From Candidatus Shapirobacteria bacterium (lineage in GTDB: Bacteria > Patescibacteriota > Microgenomatia > UBA12405): DNA of 59,152 nucleotides. Location: contig JBAZSP010000002.1 of assembly GCA_041663285.1 (NCBI GenBank), positions 1 to 59,152 of the forward strand, read 5' to 3'. Under the pieces are notes generated by a model. It saw only the letters and a program-made list of their open reading frames with translations. It had not been told where the DNA came from and did no database searches. The position numbers and the translations under genes were made by a program. Positions 7,805 through 54,413 of the stretch are shown here, piece by piece; the first letter of the stretch is position 1, and every line of letters begins with the position of its first letter.

Positions 7805-7930
7805 TTTAAATCCTAATCATCAATATCTAATATCTAAATAAATCCAAAATTCAAATTATCAAATATTTTGATCGTTTAGAATTTAGGATTTTTGATTTAG
7901 AGTTTTAAAATTTAAGAATTAAATTTTGCA
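7805..7930. repeat. AT-rich heptad arrays in inverted orientation (aaatcctaa... / ...tttagaatttaggattt)
   Basis: The left part reads as the reverse complement of the right part (imperfect). Units are TTAGAAT/TTAGGAT/TTTGATT. Confidence 0.6.
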
Positions 7931-8674: not shown

Positions 8675-9552
8675 ATGCCAAAGAAAACCACTAAAACCAA
8701 AGATGTGGAAGTCCAGAGTTCATCGAAGGACGAAATCAAGGATGTAGCCCTTAAAAAGTTGGACAAAGTGAAATCCGCCTCTGGCGGAGCTAAAAAAACT
8801 GTTAAAAAATCACCCAAGCCTACCGATGATATTTCTGTAGAGACGCCAGATCTGGCGTCTCCATCCAAAAATAATGCCAAGGATGAAGTGACAAGCAATC
8901 TGAATCCACTTCTGAAACCGCCACTCCGATCACCGAAGAAGAAAAGACAGTTAGATCCCCACGTACCCGTGGCAAAAAATACCAGGCTGCCAAAGCCAAG
9001 ACTGACCCGACTAAATACTATTCCCTAAAAGACGCCGTTAAATTGGTCAAAGAAACCTCAATTTCTAAATTTATGGGCAAAGTTGAAGCCCATCTTACTG
9101 TCTTCGATATCGGTAATGTCGGCGAAATCAGCTTCCCCCATCTTCAAACTGCCGCCAAAAAAATCGTCGTTTTAAACGATACCATTTTGGCCGAAATTAA
9201 AGAAGGTAAGCTTGACTTTGATATTTTGATTGCCACTCCGGTTACCATGCCCCGGCTTTTACCCTTTGCCCGTACTTTAGGCCCCAAAGGTCTGATGCCC
9301 AATCCCAAAAACGGCACTCTTACCGACAAGCCCGAAGAGGCAATCAAAAGGCTGTCCGCCGCCAGGCAAATGGTAACCACCGAAAAAAAGGCTCCTGTCA
9401 TCCACATCGTTGTTGGCCAGCTTTCCCAGCCCGAACCAGAACTAGAGGCCAATATCGCCGAATTAATCAAGGTTGTCAAGCCCACCAAGATCAAAAAGTT
9501 GGCCATCTGCGCCACCATGGGGCCCAGCATCAAGATTGAAATCTTAAAGTAA
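8675..9552 (+). CDS. rplA: 50S ribosomal protein L1, readable only with a frame change (see findings)
   Basis: The conserved L1 N-terminus RGKKYQAAKAKTDPTKYYSLKDAVKLVKETSISKF and the body (to 9552) are in frame 1. That frame has a TGA at 8884-8886 and no ATG/GTG/TTG before the TTG at 9043. An ATG-initiated Lys/Ser/Glu-rich ORF (from 8675) is in frame 2. Confidence 0.8.
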
Positions 9553-23759: not shown

Positions 23760-23788
23760 TTGACATCCTCCGCCTAATCCTTTATAAT
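23760..23788 (+). promoter_or_regulatory. Consensus sigma70-type promoter TTGACA-17 nt-TATAAT for rplJL
   Basis: TTGACA at 23760-23765, a 17-nt spacer, and TATAAT at 23783-23788, read directly. Confidence 0.7.
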
Positions 23789-23794
23789 CCCCTA

Positions 23795-23897
23795 ACTTAA
23801 CCGAAGACAGTAAGGGTCCGGCTACAGTCGGACATAAATATCTTACCGAGGGCAAACATAGTAATTTTACGCCCCGTCTCCGGGGCGTTGCTGTTTT
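23795..23897 (+). promoter_or_regulatory. rplJ leader with a terminator-like hairpin (candidate L10-leader attenuator)
   Basis: About 130-nt leader. ACGCCCCG-TCTC-CGGGGCGT (23869-23888) is followed by TGCTGTTTT, about 30 nt before the rplJ ATG. Confidence 0.5.
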
Positions 23898-23928
23898 AAT
23901 AAACCAAAAAATAAATTAAATTTTGTCT

Positions 23929-24439: not shown

Positions 24440-24585
24440 CCATTAATTTCCAAGTCCTAAAATCAAAATCCTAAATTCTAAACAATTTCAAATTTTCAAA
24501 TAGCTAAATATTAAAAACTTAAATTTAGAATTTAGAACTTAGGATTTCAAATTTGAATTTTTTAAATTATTAATTAAAAAATTAG
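24440..24585. repeat. AT-rich heptad arrays in inverted orientation filling the rplJ-rplL spacer
   Basis: tcctaaaatcaaaatcctaaattctaaac ... cttaaatttagaatttagaacttaggattt. Confidence 0.6.
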
Positions 24586-39841: not shown

Positions 39842-39875
39842 CCGCCGTAGTCCTGAGATTGTCGAAGGACGAAGG
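39842..39875 (+). repeat. 34-nt dispersed repeat CCGCCGTAGTCCTGAGnnTGTCGAAGGACGAAGG (copy 1)
   Basis: 32/34 identical to 42230-42263, same orientation, with an internal GTCCT/AGGAC stem. Confidence 0.85.
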
Positions 39876-42148: not shown

Positions 42149-42222
42149 CGGAGACTGGCGCAATTGGCTAGCGCGCAGCTTTCGGGTAGCTGAGGTTGCG
42201 GGTTCAAATCCCGCGTCTCCGA
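42149..42222 (+). tRNA. tRNA-Pro (anticodon CGG)
   Basis: Hand-folded cloverleaf: acceptor CGGAGAC/GTCTCCG, D arm GCGC-AATTGGCTA-GCGC, anticodon arm CAGCT-TTCGGGT-AGCTG, variable AGGTT, T arm GCGGG-TTCAAAT-CCCGC, discriminator A. No encoded CCA. Confidence 0.85.
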
Positions 42223-42229
42223 CTGTGGT

Positions 42230-42263
42230 CCGCCGTAGTCCTGAGCCTGTCGAAGGACGAAGG
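42230..42263 (+). repeat. 34-nt dispersed repeat (copy 2)
   Basis: See 39842-39875. It starts 8 nt after tRNA-Pro. Confidence 0.85.
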
Positions 42264-42355
42264 AGACCTTTTGTTCGCCATGTTTTTAGACGAAAGCGAT
42301 CTTTTTACTTTCGTTTAAATTTTGATTTTTGATCTTTTATATTTGACTTCTTAAA

Positions 42356-42427
42356 GTCCTCATAGTTCAATGGATAGAACAGCCCCCCCCTAAGGGGCAG
42401 ATGGAAGTCCGATTCTTCCTGGGGATA
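42356..42427 (+). tRNA. tRNA-like gene, formally tRNA-Arg (anticodon CCT), with non-canonical C33 and C55
   Basis: Hand fold: acceptor GTCCTCA/TGGGGAT (two G-U pairs), D arm GTTC-AATGGATA-GAAC, anticodon arm GCCCC-CCCCTAA-GGGGC, 4-nt variable loop, T arm GGAAG-TCCGATT-CTTCC, discriminator A. Confidence 0.45.
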
Positions 42428-42988
42428 CTTCTTGTCCAATCCTTATTCCGCTACCCACTAAAAGATTTTTTGCCTCTAAAGTTTCAATTTTAATCTCCCG
42501 ATTTCCTTTCCGTCCTTTCTCCGCTCTTTACGGCTTCATTCTTTGCCTTCTCCGCATTCATATTTTCCTACTCCGTATTATTACCGCTTTCATCTAGCTT
42601 ATTCCCCTTCCCTATTTGTTAGCTTTATACTCCGTATTGCCAAATATATTCTTGCTTACTGTACTATAACATTTAAAGCTTCTATATAACATATAAACCG
42701 CTCTAAACTTTAAAACTCCGCCATTTAAAAGCCCGACAATCGGACTTGAACAACAAAATATCTCGTTATCCCCTGTAATTATTCACCCGCTTCGAGCTTA
42801 ACTCTACAAATATAACATTCTACAACATTTAGAATACTGCTTTTAAGCCTTTACTACTTGCCAGCTGATCCCAAAACACTTTCCTAAATCAAAAATACTC
42901 CCCGCTCCTCTTACCATCTTATTACCATGTTTCCGAAATATTCTCTTATATATATTTATTAGCAAAAAAAACTTTTACTGATAAAGGC

Positions 42989-47730: not shown

Positions 47731-48141
47731 TTACCCCAACCTAAGAATATCCAATATCTCTTCGGCCGACACTAAACTAATCTTCCCTACCCGTTTCAAA
47801 GGCAAAATATGTTTCTTGTCTCCGCTTACCAAATAATCTGCTCTTGCCTCCAAGGCACACTCCACGATTCTATTATCTGCTACTAACTGTTTAATCTTTT
47901 TAAATTCCTTTTTTGGCTCGACTAGCTCAAAATCCTCCAAAAGCAGCCTTTCCACCTTATCCAAAGCTCCTGAACTAAAATCGAACTTCCTTCCCAATAC
48001 CGCTCGAACTTCATAAATAATAAATTTTGAAATGTATCCCCTTAATCCTCCAAGCACCACCTTGTCCATTATTTCTCTTGGCTTTCCGCCAAAAACTATC
48101 GCTGATACAATTATATTTGTATCAAGAACAACTTTTGTCAT
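47731..48141 (-). CDS. PIN-domain toxin (TIGR00305-like)
   Basis: MTKVVLDTNIIVSAIVFGG... start and C-terminal YLVSGDKKHILPL, typical of this PIN subfamily. Confidence 0.75.
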   Translation of the reverse strand: MTKVVLDTNIIVSAIVFGGKPREIMDKVVLGGLRGYISKFIIYEVRAVLGRKFDFSSGALDKVERLLLEDFELVEPKKEFKKIKQLVADNRIVECALEARADYLVSGDKKHILPLKRVGKISLVSAEEILDILRLG

Positions 48142-48144
48142 TAG

Positions 48145-48378
48145 TTAGCTTCGTAAACTGTCTATAGTATCTTCCAAATCATCCTTATTGATTTTAGCCT
48201 TTTTTCCTTTCTTTAAACCATAGGCATAAATACTTTCCCAATCTTGTTTTTTGGCTAAATAACCTCTGACAGCTTCTTGGACTAAGCCGCTGATCGTCCT
48301 GGCTTCAGCTTTCGCCCTTTTCCCCACAGCCTTATATAGAGGGCTGGGAATAGAAATATTTATCGTCTTGCACTCCAT
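48145..48378 (-). CDS. Ribbon-helix-helix (CopG-like) antitoxin
   Basis: KTINISIPSPLYKAVGKRAKAEARTISGLVQEAVRGYL fits a strand-helix-helix pattern. It sits 3 nt upstream of the PIN gene. Confidence 0.65.
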   Translation of the reverse strand: MECKTINISIPSPLYKAVGKRAKAEARTISGLVQEAVRGYLAKKQDWESIYAYGLKKGKKAKINKDDLEDTIDSLRS

Positions 48379-48415: not shown

Positions 48416-51385
48416 TTATCTTACTACCAAATTTATCATTTTCCCCGGCACATAGATTTCTTTTACCACCTGCTTCCCCACCAGCCACTGCTTAATTTTT
48501 TCCAACCCTTTTGCCTCTTCGATTATCTCTTTCCCATTCGTAATTCGTAATTGATTAATTGATAATTGATCTCTAACTTTCCCATTCACGGCCACCGGAA
48601 TCGTTATTTCTTCTTCTACCAGCATAGCCTTCTCTGCCACCGGCCAATCGGCAATATGAACCGATATCGAATCTTTCTCTTCCCTAACCTTACTCCAGAG
48701 TTCCTCCGCCGTATACGGCGCCAGCGGGGCTATTAGCTTGATTAATGTTTTTATATCATCCTTTCGTAATTCGTAATTCGTAATTCGTAATTGATTAATT
48801 GCTTCCATCATCTTGGCAATCGCCGTGTTGTACCCAAACTCTTCAATATCCCTTGTCACCCCATCAATCAATTTATTAATGATTGCCTTGATCTGTATAT
48901 CTTCTTTGCCTCCTTCTTTCGTCATCGCGATCCGCCAGCTGGCGGAGTGGCGATCTCCATCCTTAGATTGCTTCGTCTCTTCGTTCCTCGCAATGACGTC
49001 TAAGATAAATTGATTAAATCTATCCAAGAATCGCTTTACCCCCATCAGTGTTTTTTCGTTCCAAGCCATTGTTCCCGTAAACGGCCCCATAAACATCAAA
49101 TACATTCTGGCCACATCTACTCCGTATTTATCTGCCACTTGATCTGGAACAATTACATTACCTCTCGATTTACTCATCCTTTGGTTATCCGGGCCCAAAA
49201 TTACTCCGTGCGACATCCGCCGGCTGTACGGCTCCGGAGTTGGTACGCAGCCCAAATCATATAAGAATTGGTAAATGAATCTCGAGTACAAAAGATGCAG
49301 TGTGTTATGTTCGTCTCCCCCAATATAGACATCCACCGGCATCCAATACTTCAAAATATCTTCATTAAGAGTGAAAATATTTTGAGAATCTCTAATTTCC
49401 AAATCCGAATCTCTAAACGAATTTGATTTATTTAAATTTTTATCATTTGGATTTTGGACTTGTTTGGAATTTGAAAATTGGAATTTGGAACTTCCGAGGT
49501 TACATAAGTAACCGAGGTAGTACCAATCCGATCCTGCCCAATTAGGCATAGTATCCGTCTCTCTTCGGGCCCCCCCGCCACAAACCGGGCATTTGGCTTT
49601 CACCCAATCTGCCATCATCGACAGTGGTGACTCCCCGGTATCGGTTGGTTCGTAATGCTCGACTTCCGGAAGCACAATAGGCAGCTCCTCCTCCGGCACC
49701 GGGTACCACCCCGGATTTTTCTTTGGCACTTCAATGTCAATATTGTTCTCTTTGGCATATGTTTTAATTCTTTCATTTTGGTCATTTAGATTTTGGTTAT
49801 TGGTTATTGTTTGGTTATTAGAATTTGGAACTTGGTTATTCCCATGATTTTCTGCGCAATTTTTACAGAAAATCATTGGTATTGGTTCTCCCCAATAATG
49901 TTGCCTACTAAATATCCAATCCCGCAAATGATAATTAGCCGTCGGCTCCCCTATTCCTTCTTCTTTTACCCATTTTATGGCAACTTTTATTGCCTCGCTT
50001 GGCACTAACCCATTCCACCTTGGCGAGTTGATTGCTATCACTCCCGTAAGATCAGTGCAAGCTTCATCTTGTTAATTCCAATTACCGGCTTCGCCCGCCG
50101 TAGCTTTAGCGTAGGTGGGCACTATTGGCAATCCAAACTTTTTGGCAAAAGCAAAATCCCGCTCATCATGAGCCGGGACTGCCATAATAGCTCCAGTGCC
50201 GTAAGAGGCCAAGACAAAGTCGGATATCCAAATCGGAATTTCTTTTCCGTTTACCGGGTTAATCGCATATAATCCCGAAAACACCCCCGTCTTTTCCTTA
50301 GCCAACTCCGTCCTTTCCATATCACTTTTCTTTCTGGCATTAGCCACATATTTTTTTATTTCTTCAATTTGGGCATTAATAATTTGAACATTGGAATTTG
50401 TTTGGGATTTGTCAGCCATAAGCTGATCCGCCTTTGGTGGAGAATTTGGGATTTGCTTATTCATGATTTGGTTTACCAAATCATGTTCCGGTGCTATCAC
50501 CATAAATGTCGCCCCGTATAACGTATCCGGCCTGGTAGTAAAAACTTCAATATTAAAATCTGGTGAGTGTCCAATTTTTCGCGCGCAATCATCCGAATCC
50601 GACTTCATGTCCGATAAGAGCGTGCCTGCCCGCCTCTGGCGGGAGCACGATAAAATTGTGGCCGAACCAGATTCCAATTTGAATTTAATTCTGGCTCCCT
50701 CCGACTTCCCTATCCAATTAATCTGCGCCTGCTTGACCTTTTCCACAAAATTAGTCTGTTCTAAACCCTCAAGCAGTCTATCAGCATAGTTTGTTATCTT
50801 TACTACCCATTGTGATATATTCCTTCTTGACACCTCAGCCCCGCACCGTTCGCATTTTCCGTTCACTACTTCTTCGTTAGCCAGTCCTATCTTGCAACTT
50901 GGGCACCAATTAATCGGCATTTCCTGCTTGTAGGCCAAGCCTTTTTTGAATAATTGTATAAAAATCCACTGAGTCCAGCGGTAATAGTCTGGATCAGTCG
51001 TGTTGACCTCTCTTGACCAATCAAACGAAAACGCCAGCCGCTTCATCTGCTCCCTAAACATATCGGTGTTCTGCTTAGTTACCTCCTGCGGTGGCTTTTT
51101 CATCTTTATCGCATAGTTCTCAGTCGGCAGTCCAAAGGCATCCCAACCCATTGGGTAAAGCACGTTAAACCCTCTCATCCGCCAATATCGGGCGTAAACG
51201 TCCCCTCCAGTAAAAGTAAACGCATGGCCAATATGCAATCCGCTGCCGCTTGGATATGGAAACTCTACTAAAATATACTTCTTCGGTTTATTCGAGTAAT
51301 CTTTAGCCGCCGTAGCTTCAGCGTAGGCGGCCCAAAACTTCTGCCAGTTAGATTCAATCTCTTTGAATTTATTTTCTTTTTCCAT
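48416..51385 (-). CDS. leuS: Leucyl-tRNA synthetase, single reading frame interrupted by one TAA (50074-50072) and carrying many repeat-derived insertions
   Basis: The N-part has HIGH (GLHIGHAF), the Zn-binding CPSC...CERCG and the CP1 editing domain (TTRPDTLYGATF). The C-part has LRDWIFSRQHYWGEPIP and KMSKS (RMSKSRGN). Both track ORFs (51385 and 50041) are in the same frame. Confidence 0.9.
48778..48801. repeat. 24-nt block TCGTAATTCGTAATTGATTAATTG inside leuS, also present at 48538-48561
   Basis: Exact duplicate read directly. At 48764-48791 the TCGTAAT unit is repeated four times. Both copies encode INQLRITN. Confidence 0.85.
48965..48998 (-). repeat. REP-like element inside leuS with the same termini as 30847-30887
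   Basis: The reverse complement reads CGTCATTGCGAGGAACGAAGAGACGAAGCAATCT. Next to it is the hairpin TCCGCC-AGCT-GGCGGA (48931-48946). Confidence 0.7.
50094..50119. repeat. REP-like element CCCGCCGTAGCTTTAGCGTAGGTGGG inside leuS, 20 nt from the in-frame stop
   Basis: Related copies lie at 51306-51331 (in leuS) and 52141-52165 (intergenic). It encodes PTYAKATAG. Confidence 0.75.
51306..51331. repeat. REP-like element GCCGCCGTAGCTTCAGCGTAGGCGGC inside the leuS 5' end
   Basis: Encodes AAYAEATAA between the conserved WQKFW and KPKKYIL segments. Confidence 0.75.
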
Positions 51386-51400
51386 AGCTTATTTTAAACT

Positions 51401-51428
51401 AAAAAAACCCGCCTCTTGGGCGGGGTTT
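51401..51428 (-). terminator. Intrinsic terminator 15 nt upstream of the leuS start codon
   Basis: Minus strand: CCCGCC (51424-51419), CAAGA, GGCGGG (51413-51408), then T7 (51407-51401). Confidence 0.6.
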
Positions 51429-51452
51429 CTTTTATCCTTTTACCCCTCCCTC

Positions 51453-51488
51453 TCAGGCAACCAAAAGAAGAAGAGTTAAGGTAAACAT
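51453..51488 (-). CDS. Candidate Leu-rich leader peptide MFTLTLLLLVA
   Basis: Hand-translated: ATG TTT ACC TTA ACT CTT CTT CTT TTG GTT GCC TGA. A TAAAAT -10 (51499-51494) ends 5 nt upstream. Confidence 0.5.
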   Translation of the reverse strand: MFTLTLLLLVA

Positions 51489-51635
51489 AAGCCATTTTAC
51501 CACATCGCCCTTTTTGTGTTACAAATATATTAGAATGCTCTTACAATTTATTTTTGGTCTCATTAGTCTCTCCATCATCCCATTTTTGACTTTGTCCCTC
51601 CCCCTACCAGTCTTCGTCGTTTAGACTCCTTTACT

Positions 51636-52070
51636 TTGAGCCACGAACTTAAAAGCTGTCACCATTCCTGGTTTGGTTGTGTACTTCTTCTTGTTGGCGG
51701 TATTTCTACTAGTTTTTTCTTCTTTTTTATGCCAGTCAATACCTATCCTGACGAGTTTCATTTTATAATTATGCTTTTCTTTTCATTTATCATTTTAACA
51801 GCCGCTACCTTATATTATCCCGATTCTTGGTTTCATTTTCTATTTGCTGGAATTACTGCTCTGGCTCTTTACCTGCTAGCAATCTTTGTCAGCCTTGTTA
51901 TTTTAATATTTATCCCTCTGTCCGGGTCAGTTGGACTGTTGATTCTTTTTTTGGGTTTAATTGCTTTCTTTTCTTACCAGTTACTCCGCCGCTTTTCGGT
52001 TACCGGCGTCACCGAATGGATATTTATTTTCACTCTTTCAGTCTGGTCGGTACTTTATTTTATTTTCTAA
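51636..52070 (+). CDS. Hypothetical polytopic membrane protein (144 aa)
   Basis: Four hydrophobic segments, TTG start in the track. No family recognised. Confidence 0.5.
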   Translation: MSHELKSCHHSWFGCVLLLVGGISTSFFFFFMPVNTYPDEFHFIIMLFFSFIILTAATLYYPDSWFHFLFAGITALALYLLAIFVSLVILIFIPLSGSVGLLILFLGLIAFFSYQLLRRFSVTGVTEWIFIFTLSVWSVLYFIF

Positions 52071-52140
52071 ACCCCTTAGGTAACTCAAACCGCCTAGTCT
52101 ACCAAGCTACCTAATCCTAATGTCCTCTCCTTACTCTTGT

Positions 52141-52200
52141 CCACCGAAGCTTTAGCGTAGGTAGGATCACCTGTCCCGATCGAAGCATCGGGAAAGGAGG
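52141..52200. repeat. Composite REP-like hairpins (CCACCGAAGCTTTAGCGTAGGTAGG, then GTCCCGATCGAAGCATCGGGA)
   Basis: The first part is related to the leuS copies. The second has a CCCGAT/ATCGGG stem like the hairpin inside murB (36631-36646). Confidence 0.65.
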
Positions 52201-52215
52201 GGCTAGGGGTGGATT

Positions 52216-52312
52216 TCTTAATTAAAAATTAGAATTTAGAAATTTTGAATTTGTTTAGAGTTTAGATATTAGGATTTAGAATTTAGAACTTAGGATTTAG
52301 AGCTTAAATGCT
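52216..52312. repeat. AT-rich TTAGAAT/TTAGGAT heptad array
   Basis: ttagaatttagaaattttgaatttgtttagagtttagatattaggatttagaatttagaacttaggatttagagc. Confidence 0.65.
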
Positions 52313-52337
52313 ATTCATGAATCCTGAATCAAAGTCG

Positions 52338-54413
52338 TTATTCGTACCTTAACGCATTCAAAGCCGAAATCGCTCTGGCCCTTTTTGACGGATACCAGCC
52401 CGTAAATATCCCCACCACAAAAGATATCATCATAATAAAAATTACAAAAAATATCGGTAAATAAGTCAAATCTAAAGTAGCTTGCCCTTTCATCACCGAA
52501 ACTAAGCTTAACCCAATCGATACCAATTTGCTTCCCGCATATCCCCCAATCACCCCCAAAGCGCCTCCACCAACCCCCATCATCATTGATTCTGCCAAAA
52601 ATAATTCCCTCACCTCGTCCGATTGCATCCCCATGGCTTTCATTACCCCCACCTCTCTCGTCCTCTCCAATAATGACACCGTCATCGTATTAAACATCCC
52701 CAGTGAGGCCACCGCCAGGGCAATTGTTCCCAATAGCCCCAAAACCAGCCGTAAAGTTTTGAAAATCTTTTCGATTCCCACTACCGTATCCACCGTACTC
52801 GATGTTTTATAACCCATCATCTCCGTTAACCTCCTGGCTTCAGCCAAATCAGCTTCTTTATCCACCAGGATTTTTAGCTGGGAATAATTACTAACTCCTA
52901 ATTTTCTGGCATCACTTAAATGAAAATAAAAATAATTACTGCTGTCATCGTCGATTACTCCCTTTATTAAATATTCAGTTTCTTCTGACTGGGCCCGCCC
53001 TTGCTTGTTAGCTAGTAACGAATCCGGCACAATAAATACTACCGAAAACATTTTTTCGCCCACCTCTTCCAGTTTTAAACCTAACATCTCCATCATTCCG
53101 CTACTAATGTATGCCTCTTTTACCGCTTCCTCCTGAAATTTTATGGTATTAACTTTATTCTTATCATCCTCTTTTTGATTTAATTCTACCCACTCAACTC
53201 CGTTTTTATCGATTGTCGTTGTCTTGGCAAACATCAAGGCCGAGGCCGAGGCCACCTTGGCATCTTCAACCAATGTGGTGTTAATTCCCAACACTTGGTC
53301 GCTCCTTTCTTTTATTCCCTCCAAATACTCAGTTAAGCTTTCTGCCTTAAACAATTTTCGGCTGTCCCCGTCAATTATCAGATCGTCCAGTCTCAAGTAC
53401 CCAACTGCCCATTTTTGCTTGCCTATACCATCTACTTCCGGAGCCGCCCCATCTTCAGTCATTCTCCACAAAGGAACTTTAGCCTTCATCCACTTGGAAT
53501 ATTCCTGATCCAAATATACATCTTTGCCGTCTACTTGCTCCTGACTGTCGTATTTTTCCCCCCAAACTTCCTCTCCGATATAACCGTTTTCCCTCCGGAT
53601 CACTACTCCCACCGGCTTTCCTTGGTTTTTACCCTCGCTGTATATTATCGCGTTACTACCTTGTTTTACATTAAACTTAACTACTCCCTTATCTACTTTT
53701 TCTCCATTCACTGCAAAGCTCACTTCTTCAGTCTCCCCCAAAATTTTCTCCGAGCCAGGAATCATCGCTTCCTCATCCATATTTTTGAACTTCTCCTTGG
53801 TCAAATAACCCACCCCTGTAATCTGCAAATATCTGGCATCAACTCCAAACGACATTACGTCCAGCACCGAATTATTAAATTTTACTTTAGCCACCATCGA
53901 CACAATCGGCAGAACCTCCTTCACTCCATTAAAAGTTTGGATTTTCCCAATTGCCACTTCGTTCATTTTGCTTAATGATGCCTTTACCAAACTAACATCG
54001 GCCATCTTTAATTCATTCAACTTAGCTACCCGGGATATCACCAGTTTTTCCAGCCCGTATCCCACTGACACCAAAAACACAATTGCTCCTACCCCTAATG
54101 CCACTCCGCCTATAGTCACTATCGACCTGGCACTTCTCGACCTCATGTTTTCCAAAGCCAACTCAACTAAATAAGCCCGAGAGATTTGGCCACCCCGATC
54201 GTAGTCCATCCAGAATATCATTTTGTCGACCAGCTTCATCAAAAGCTGCCCTCCCAACAGTCTAAAACCCTTGCCGGCAATCTTTAGTTCGATTAAAAAA
54301 TTCAGTATCTGACGGAAGATAATCAGGCACAACACAAAAATAAAAATAATATTGAAATATATTAAACATCCCCAATTTTTAACTGTTTCCACCATGCGAT
54401 TAATTTTTCTCAT
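52338..54413 (-). CDS. MacB/FtsX-type ABC transporter permease with a large extracytoplasmic domain
   Basis: 691 aa. A TM helix is followed by a ~430-aa extracytoplasmic region, then a C-terminal FtsX-like three-TM bundle (VGVMKAMGMQSDEVRELFLAES...). Confidence 0.75.
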   Translation of the reverse strand: MRKINRMVETVKNWGCLIYFNIIFIFVLCLIIFRQILNFLIELKIAGKGFRLLGGQLLMKLVDKMIFWMDYDRGGQISRAYLVELALENMRSRSARSIVTIGGVALGVGAIVFLVSVGYGLEKLVISRVAKLNELKMADVSLVKASLSKMNEVAIGKIQTFNGVKEVLPIVSMVAKVKFNNSVLDVMSFGVDARYLQITGVGYLTKEKFKNMDEEAMIPGSEKILGETEEVSFAVNGEKVDKGVVKFNVKQGSNAIIYSEGKNQGKPVGVVIRRENGYIGEEVWGEKYDSQEQVDGKDVYLDQEYSKWMKAKVPLWRMTEDGAAPEVDGIGKQKWAVGYLRLDDLIIDGDSRKLFKAESLTEYLEGIKERSDQVLGINTTLVEDAKVASASALMFAKTTTIDKNGVEWVELNQKEDDKNKVNTIKFQEEAVKEAYISSGMMEMLGLKLEEVGEKMFSVVFIVPDSLLANKQGRAQSEETEYLIKGVIDDDSSNYFYFHLSDARKLGVSNYSQLKILVDKEADLAEARRLTEMMGYKTSSTVDTVVGIEKIFKTLRLVLGLLGTIALAVASLGMFNTMTVSLLERTREVGVMKAMGMQSDEVRELFLAESMMMGVGGGALGVIGGYAGSKLVSIGLSLVSVMKGQATLDLTYLPIFFVIFIMMISFVVGIFTGWYPSKRARAISALNALRYE

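Follow-up and report, generated by a model that had tools for sequence, protein, structure and literature searches.

A leader preceding leuS, the gene for leucyl-tRNA synthetase (LeuRS), was identified on the minus strand of the window, a stretch of 59,152 nucleotides (nt) from Candidatus Shapirobacteria (contig JBAZSP010000002.1, positions 1 to 59,152). We consider it likely that this leader is a ribosome-mediated leader-peptide attenuator, which would sense Leu-tRNA(Leu) and gate the transcription that enters leuS from an upstream promoter, P1. As judged by sequence comparison, the leader is a real and conserved element, and its conservation and the modelled folds indicated that it is probably functional. 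The initial annotation of the window had already described a short Leu-codon open reading frame (mini-ORF) with alternative pairings of regions 1:2, 2:3 and 3:4 as a leuS attenuator. Every coordinate and base of its elements proved correct when the minus strand was read, and the core of that reading was supported by conservation in four diverged relatives. Its claim of novelty was not sustained, and both the missing Shine-Dalgarno (SD) sequence of the mini-ORF and a second TAAAAT box close to leuS had been overlooked.

The mini-ORF, for which the name leuL is proposed, consisted of 11 sense codons, five of them for Leu and four of these consecutive (Table 1). CTT and CTC were rare in the window genes, with 8% and 2% of the Leu codons, respectively. 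At the Leu frequency of the window (8.3%), the chance of at least three consecutive Leu codons in a 12-codon ORF was about 0.005. The minus strand, which held nearly all genes, was strongly G-rich throughout (plus-strand GC skew -0.15 to -0.44 over the whole window), and the pyrimidine run of the Leu codons went against this bias, as the initial annotation had remarked. Because no SD sequence preceded the mini-ORF, it would presumably be translated as a leaderless mRNA, which is plausible given the similar placing of -10 boxes before the start codons of other window genes. An overlapping ORF of 33 aa (51495-51394, MAYVYLNSS...) was also considered and rejected: its ATG lay inside the -10 box and no counterpart was seen in the leader sequences of relatives. 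A bidirectional terminator was rejected likewise, a T-rich tail being present on the plus strand of the window and none in the related locus L010.

About 32 distinct Shapirobacteria-like leuS loci were compared: the window, L001-L020 (taken from species genomes) and L117-L127 (reached by protein look-ups). The full ordered module was present in the window and in L010, L019, L120 and L121 (Table 2), which together are referred to below as the five leaders. Among L117-L127 the leader was found in L120 and L121, and none was found in L117-L119 and L122-L127. The LeuRS N-terminal regions of the five leader loci shared 66-75% pairwise identity, and at this distance the short ORF, the Leu run and the alternative pairings, whose conservation upstream of leuS had been proposed as a check, were kept in all four relatives. 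The mini-ORFs started 5-6 nt past a -10 box and 92-107 nt before the leuS ATG, comprised 12-14 codons with the stop codon included, and contained 3-6 consecutive Leu codons. The P1 box stood in the context TG(T/G)GTAAAAT in L010 and L019, TGA-TAAAAT in L120 and AGA-TAAAAT in L121. Counted from the start codon, the Leu run came after 15, 18 or 21 nt, in every leader a multiple of three despite the diverged bases in between, and these three-multiple insertions and deletions support translation of the mini-ORF. In the alignment of the five leaders, CTC/CTT CTT CTT was the best-conserved stretch and the peptides otherwise had only the Leu run in common, as expected for a leader peptide. The stop codon lay 0-8 nt before the G-block in every case, and the terminators were found at the equivalent place with perfect stems of differing sequence, each followed by U5-U7 on the leuS strand. 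Region 2 tracked the terminator arm, with GCCGGGG against CCCGGC in L121 and G-runs against C-runs in the other leaders.

The gene upstream of the module was divergent in L010 and L019 and co-directional in L121, which indicated that the module travels with leuS. L019 and L010 have divergent neighbours, so in these two loci the hairpin cannot be the terminator of an upstream gene read in the same direction. In L117, the hairpin was the terminator of the upstream gene and no Leu ORF was present. In a neighbour-joining tree of the LeuRS N-terminal regions, the window with L010 and L019 with L121 were placed in adjoining branches and L120 was placed elsewhere, which fits an old element with losses. 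A degenerate version was detected in L015 (MKKHWLFLTR, with a Leu-Phe-Leu stretch), in which the two-hairpin fold was kept (z = -4.2).

The 115-nt leader RNA of the window folded with -37.2 kcal/mol (z = -2.67), and 2 of 200 shuffles were as good. Its minimum-free-energy structure was composed of an 11-bp helix of CUCUUCUUCUU with GAGAGGGAGGG, plus the terminator. The same combination of 1:2 helix and terminator was obtained for the free full-length RNA of all five leaders, and also as the RNAalifold consensus of their unedited MAFFT alignment. To represent the ribosome, 16 nt from the first P-site base (15 nt beyond the P-site base) were masked and the nascent RNA was folded to the terminator loop. 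When the A site was set at the first Leu codon of the run, the 2:3 helix reached -13.9 kcal/mol in the window, -15.6 in L010, -14.1 in L019, -9.9 in L120 and -19.1 in L121, and moving the A site to the last Leu codon weakened it (-5.1 to -14.1 kcal/mol). Once the A site was at the stop codon, region 2 was covered and the antiterminator was left with 0 to -1.8 kcal/mol. The footprint geometry held in each of the five modelled leaders: region 2 was left exposed by a ribosome stalled at the Leu codons and was masked by one at the stop codon. In the masked folds of the window, GGG.GGGGU was paired with ACCCC.CCC. Pairing of region 2 with region 3 uses the terminator 5' arm and so excludes the terminator; in the computed structures the two were thus mutually exclusive, a point that the initial annotation had proposed to check, the 2:3 helix taking that arm in the masked folds of all five leaders. 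The observed 2:3 energy was reached by 0-6 of 500 composition-preserving shuffles in four of the five leaders, the window accounting for the upper value. A role of the purine block as SD sequence for a downstream ORF was considered and rejected, an AUG following the block in L019 only.

Table 1. Features of the leuS leader and of leuS in the window
Feature	Position	Strand	Remarks
-35-like hexamer GTAACA of P1	51517..51522	-	weak candidate from consensus scan; 17-nt spacer to TAAAAT
extended -10 box TGG-TAAAAT of P1	51494..51502	-	TG 51502-51501, TAAAAT 51499-51494
mini-ORF (proposed leuL), MFTLTLLLLVA, stop TGA	51453..51488	-	ATG 5 nt past -10 box; ATG TTT ACC TTA ACT CTT CTT CTT TTG GTT GCC TGA (51488-51453)
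putative regulatory Leu codons CTT CTT CTT TTG (codons 6-9)	51462..51473	-	extra Leu codon TTA at 51479-51477
region 1, pyrimidine run CUCUUCUUCUU	51465..51475	-	partner of region 2 in minimum-free-energy folds and RNAalifold consensus
region 2, purine block GAGAGGGAGGGG	51443..51454	-	overlaps TGA stop; partner either region 1 or region 3
region 3, ACCCCGCCC	51418..51426	-	antiterminator partner of region 2; includes entire terminator 5' arm
terminator-arm element CCCCGCCC	51425-51418	-	from sequence reading
terminator hairpin CCCGCC-CAAGA-GGCGGG (regions 3:4)	51408..51424	-	-11.0 kcal/mol alone
U7 tract of terminator	51401..51407	-	then 15 nt to leuS ATG at 51385
second -10-like box TAAAAT, candidate leaderless promoter P2	51391..51396	-	5 nt before leuS ATG
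leuS first ORF, 437 aa	50072..51385	-	PF00133, PF09334, PF13603: N-terminal half of catalytic core and CP1 editing domain
leuS second ORF, 541 aa	48416..50041	-	PF00133, PF08264: remaining catalytic core and anticodon-binding domain; same frame as first ORF

Table 2. The leader module in four related leuS loci
Locus	P1 -10 region, spacing	Mini-ORF	Peptide	Region 2	Terminator	Box before leuS ATG
L010	TGGTAAAAT, 6 nt	GTG AAT ATA AAA TTT AAT TCT CTC CTT CTT ATG TAG	VNIKFNSLLLM	GGGGGAGA	GCCCC-CAAGA-GGGGC-U7	TAAAAT, 7 nt
L019	TGGTAAAAT, 6 nt	ATG AAA TTA TTA ATT GTA TCC CTC CTT CTA AAC TAG	MKLLIVSLLLN	GGGGGAU	GCCCCC-AAGU-GGGGGC-U5	TAAATT, 5 nt
L120	TGATAAAAT, 5 nt	ATG ATT AAA AGT TCC TCT CTC CTC CTT CTT TTG TTG GCA TAA	MIKSSSLLLLLLA	GGGGGA	CCUCCC-A6-GGGAGG-U7	TAAAAT, 7 nt
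L121	GATAAAAT, 6 nt	ATG AAA AAA GTT GCT GTT AAC CTC CTT CTT GTT GGA TAG	MKKVAVNLLLVG	(G)CCGGGGAGG	CCCGGC-CGUU-GCCGGG-U6	TAAAAT, 7 nt

Both strands of 465 kb, comprising the window and the loci of the relatives, were scanned with a neutral grammar: a -10 box, after 4-9 nt a start codon that opens an ORF of 6-25 codons, and a GC hairpin with T-run no more than 110 nt on. The scan yielded nothing beyond the five leuS leaders and a single unrelated match, and no mini-ORF attenuator of similar design was found on other genes of the window or of these loci. In the 330 nt preceding leuS, ORFs with at least three Leu codons in a row were present in 1 of 60 outgroup loci. The covariance model R1, searched over 620 kb, gave no further match except a marginal one in L015 at the same place (25.6 bits). 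No Rfam family reached its gathering score on the leader of the window, L010, L019, L120, L121 or L015, and the sub-threshold matches to Phe_leader, Leu_leader and P9 were far under the family thresholds and were taken as chance. The T-box (RF00230) was not detected at gathering score in the window or the leader loci, nor at an E-value of up to 10 in 51000-52600. A metagenome scan with the pattern TGGTAAAAT-N55-85-CCCAAGNGG-N2-4-TTTTT, which was too narrow, gave only one identical copy, L088, and about 35 chance matches. L088 (JGI contig Ga0172379_10318618, 1034 bp) matched the window exactly over the displayed leader region and the leuS start, and it is probably from the same population or sample.

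Besides P1, a second -10-like box, termed P2, was located between the terminator and leuS. In the five leaders it was placed 5-7 nt before the leuS ATG and 1-4 nt past the U-tract. -10-like boxes (TAnnnT) were found about 4-9 nt before the start codon in 15 of the 35 long ORFs of the window, with a mode of 5-6 nt, compared to a background of about 0.5 per position, and a few other window genes carried GGAGG-type SD sequences. This sharp peak, 5-9 nt before the start codons, suggested that leaderless mRNAs are the main expression mode in the genome of the window. The spacing of P2 equalled this leaderless promoter geometry, so that leuS is probably also transcribed from its own leaderless promoter, and the attenuator would then control part of the transcription. 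The conserved box thereby makes a transcription start downstream of the hairpin possible for at least part of leuS transcription. In most relatives leuS had no leader and its ATG followed TG-n-TAAAAT or TATAAT at 5-11 nt, and in L004, L014 and L016, which lack the leader, TG(T/G)GTAAAAT stood directly before leuS. P1 and P2 were alike, and in L120 both read TAAAATAGT. This likeness suggested that the leader may stem from a duplication of promoter and start region, and the relatives without it may have lost it through deletion between the repeats.

In the model that we infer from the elements described above, their retention in relatives and the modelled alternative structures, RNA polymerase would start at or beside the A of the mini-ORF ATG, giving a leaderless leader mRNA, and a ribosome would load on its 5'-terminal AUG. 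With ample charged tRNA(Leu), the ribosome would reach the stop codon with its footprint over the G-rich region 2; region 3 would then pair with region 4, the terminator would form and transcription would stop in the U-tract, which ends 15 nt upstream of leuS. If charged tRNA(Leu) runs short, translation would halt on the rare CUU/CUC Leu codons; the stalled ribosome would hide region 1 and leave region 2 free to form the antiterminator with the C-rich 5' strand of the terminator hairpin, and the polymerase would read through into leuS. If no ribosome is present, 1:2 and 3:4 would both form and transcription would be terminated. P2 (51396-51391) would serve as the basal leaderless promoter of leuS, to which the attenuator would add a Leu-starvation-inducible part, and it would not be the sole control. 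This tandem arrangement, with a basal leaderless leuS mRNA from P2 and a Leu-responsive leadered mRNA from P1, is preferred here. A stricter form of it is put forward tentatively, at rather less than even confidence, namely a fully leaderless attenuator (5'-terminal AUG, no SD sequence) in tandem with P2, from which two leuS mRNAs would arise, one constitutive from P2 and one from P1 with a leader of about 100 nt that is induced by shortage of charged tRNA(Leu). The main uncertainty lies in the share of leuS expression that passes via the attenuator compared with that via P2.

Several observations weigh against the attenuator. The -10 box behind the terminator was kept in all five leaders (TAAAAT in four, TAAATT in L019), and if P2 is the main promoter, the contribution of the attenuator to leuS may be small. 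leuS has no SD sequence, and on a read-through mRNA from P1 ribosomes would have to initiate internally without one; SD sequences were likewise absent from several seemingly internal genes of the window, and initiation of this kind at the leuS AUG is plausible by comparison with them. The 2:3 helix of L120 was not significant (92 of 500 shuffles), and the 1:2 helix was only moderately stronger than the shuffles (3-107 of 500 in the five leaders). In the free nascent RNA of L010, L019 and L121, 2:3 was thermodynamically equal to or better than 1:2, so that termination without translation would hinge on the folding order. Five sequences were too few for a formal covariation test, and the module was present in only 5 (perhaps 6) of the approximately 32 related leuS loci. 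The mini-ORF of L010 begins with GTG, a poorer leaderless start than ATG in some bacteria. Moreover, the organism is uncultivated, and attenuator activity is a prediction from the sequence and the folds.

The P2 box leads to the alternative that the hairpin with its U-tract works as a constitutive terminator or insulator and that leuS is expressed from P2 only, P1 and the mini-ORF being a duplicated relic or a gene for a tiny hydrophobic peptide of 11-13 aa without regulatory read-through. It would account for the retained box and for its geometry, which is that of the leaderless promoters of the window genome and of the relatives without the leader, and the resemblance of P1 to P2 suggests a tandem duplication. 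L117 even offers the layout that this explanation assumes, a plain terminator of the upstream gene followed by TTAAAAT, 5 nt and the leuS ATG. However, a relic would not be expected to keep the in-frame Leu run, the three-multiple insertions and deletions, the placement of the stop codon and the tracking of the terminator arm by region 2 at the LeuRS divergence given above, and peptides with nothing but the Leu run in common argue against a functional peptide. The module also stayed linked to leuS as the upstream neighbours changed. A working P2 is compatible with an attenuator in a tandem-promoter arrangement. We regard expression from P2 only as unlikely.

An RNA-only element would need no translation, either as a small RNA of about 88 nt with a CU-rich anti-SD-like motif, or as a leader switched by a protein (e.g. 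LeuRS) or by tRNA. The promoter, two hairpins and terminator do make up a compact transcript, the CUCCUUCUU motif resembles the 16S rRNA 3' end and the G-block resembles an SD sequence, pyrimidine/purine pairing alone would constrain the sequence, and L015 retained the two-hairpin fold with only a Leu-Phe-Leu stretch. Such an element does not require that the pyrimidine run be read as Leu from a start codon held 5-6 nt past the -10 box, as was seen in each of the five leaders, or three-multiple insertions and deletions with a stop codon just before region 2. The G-block had no conserved start codon after it, a T-box would need a much longer leader, and no Rfam family was at threshold. This explanation was judged improbable, more so than expression from P2 only. 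Least probable of all, to a degree that we would hardly entertain it, is a chance arrangement or another dispersed GC palindrome that happens to precede leuS. Its basis is the abundance of CCGCC-N3-9-GGCGG hairpins, of which the window contains six against 0.19 expected, two of them inside leuS, and the promiscuous pairing of purine and pyrimidine runs. The flanks of the six hairpins were mutually unrelated and the U7 tail was found on the leuS copy alone, so the possibility raised in the initial annotation, that the leuS hairpin is one more copy of the dispersed repeat, was not borne out. Furthermore, four other genomes had a hairpin at the same position with differing stems and the mini-ORF alongside, and the grammar and covariance-model searches gave no other occurrence. 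The comparative data therefore largely refute chance, and the ribosome-mediated attenuator is retained as the preferred reading.

The nearest relatives of the window leuS were metagenome-assembled genomes of Candidatus Shapirobacteria, with at most 70% amino-acid identity, and on these matches the window is a Candidatus Shapirobacteria-like genome of the Microgenomates within the Candidate Phyla Radiation (CPR). The leuS reading frame was broken after residue 437 (...PTYAKATAGEAGNWN) by an in-frame TAA at 50072-50074 (minus strand), in a variable linker just past the editing domain. In several relatives (compare L119, L120, L123 and L126) leuS was likewise called as 2-3 ORFs, with differing split points, and such calls may reflect true split genes, pseudogenes or assembly errors. 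A 25-nt repeat (plus strand CCGCCGTAGCTTTAGCGTAGGTGGG) occurred three times in 2.1 kb, at 50095-50119, 51307-51331 and 52141-52165. The two copies in leuS were in frame, encoding AAYAEATAA near the N-terminus and PTYAKATAG right before the in-frame stop, and the third copy was intergenic. Peptides resembling the N-terminal one were observed at the same LeuRS site in L010 (ATYADATAAKD), L121 (ATAANALAAKD) and L019 (PAYANAPDG). Other members of the CCGCC-N3-9-GGCGG hairpins were located at 8775, 25042 and 34182, and two GC palindromes inside leuS (50630-50642 and 48932-48945) lay in odd low-complexity insertions (SRQRRAG... and DRHSASWRIAMT).

The upstream co-directional neighbour of leuS in the window was an FtsX/MacB permease gene by Pfam (52338-54413). 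The gap between it and leuS was repeat-rich and about 950 nt long, and the homologous permease gene abutted leuS in L124. About 850 nt of this gap (51500-52337), between the permease gene and the leuS leader, was apparently non-coding and rich in repeats, including tandem TCTAAAT-like units at 52220-52309 that recurred at 24516-24558 and 7860-7909. A hydrophobic plus-strand ORF of 144 aa at 51636-52070 had no match in the Pfam search. Directly downstream of leuS (47731-48378, minus strand), genes for a 136-aa PIN-domain protein and for a 77-aa protein with only sub-threshold ribbon-helix-helix matches were found, and from these domain matches the pair is likely a toxin-antitoxin system. Elsewhere in the window, a ribosomal protein L10 leader (RF00557) was detected at 23783-23903 with 49.4 bits against a gathering score of 44, on the plus strand though nearly all long ORFs were on the minus strand. 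tRNA-Pro(CGG) and tRNA-Arg(CCT) were also on the plus strand. A 34-nt repeat (CCGCCGTAGTCCTGAG..TCGAAGGACGAAGG) began 7 nt past the end of tRNA-Pro, and a copy with 94% identity was found 2.4 kb away; these tRNA and repeat features lie at 42149-42428 and 39842-39875.

The initial annotation had stated that no leader-peptide attenuator on leuS was known, which is wrong, as Streptomyces cases have been published. Seliverstov et al. 2005 predicted attenuators of the classical type ahead of the Streptomyces genes leuS and trpS, and cited pheST as the gamma-proteobacterial precedent (PMC1262725). In S. lividans, the leaderless leader peptide leuL2 (MRAVRLLLSEPR), followed by a hairpin and U stretch, was described by Droste et al. 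2021 (PMC8079986). The leader found here shared with the Streptomyces leuS attenuator the controlled gene, the logic, the predicted antiterminator and terminator hairpins and a short leader peptide, which is reported as leaderless in Streptomyces and is presumably so here. leuL2 has 12 aa with three consecutive Leu, and the peptides here have 11-13 aa with 3-6 Leu. Differently from Streptomyces, CUY/UUG Leu codons were used here, a purine-block region 2 paired with both the codon run and the terminator, and a second -10 box was located between the terminator and leuS. The two leaders, compared by description, belong to unrelated phyla (Actinobacteria versus CPR/Patescibacteria), and for this reason their leuS attenuators probably evolved independently.

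Other systems resembled the leader in part. The enterobacterial leu operon leader (RF00512) also has consecutive Leu codons, rare ones included, with a terminator/antiterminator choice that senses Leu-tRNA charging, but it controls leuABCD and has a 28-aa peptide with an SD sequence. Leu_leader scored 21.3 bits on the leuS leader against a gathering score of 50, and the leuS leader is not a member of this family. In E. coli, pheST is preceded by the 14-aa leader peptide pheM, which is rich in the cognate amino acid and SD-led, and has the 1:2 / 2:3 / 3:4 topology. It is thus the same kind of classical attenuator on an aminoacyl-tRNA synthetase operon, with a short cognate-rich leader and the same topology, whereas the amino acid sensed is another one, the leader depends on an SD sequence and sequence homology is absent. 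Phe_leader (RF01859) gave 26.1 bits on this leader against a gathering score of 55. The leuS T-box of Firmicutes has the same output, since leuS is read through on uncharged tRNA(Leu) by terminator/antiterminator choice. In contrast, the T-box senses the uncharged tRNA directly in a leader of at least about 200 nt and without translation, compared with about 88 nt and a conserved ORF here.

The leuS leader is a known attenuator design in an unrelated phylum, and it involves no new regulatory principle. A full-text literature search combining Patescibacteria, leader peptide and attenuation found no paper, and the leader is probably the first example of attenuation in CPR bacteria, whose gene regulation is little known. 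Ultra-small CPR bacteria generally lack amino-acid biosynthesis. If the attenuator is true, such reduced, host- or community-dependent cells would monitor the charging of tRNA(Leu) and adjust the supply of the synthetase, and transcription would be coupled to translation of a leaderless mRNA in CPR bacteria. A confirmed attenuator would further mean that the arrangement known from Streptomyces, in which a leaderless LLL peptide of about 12 aa is followed by a terminator and then leuS, arose again in an unrelated phylum. The tandem leaderless reading, if true, would point to tight coupling of transcription and translation in Patescibacteria and to internal initiation there that is independent of SD sequences. 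As a compact cis-element of about 110 nt that lends itself to work in heterologous hosts, the leader would offer a handle on promoters, leaderless initiation and termination in CPR bacteria.

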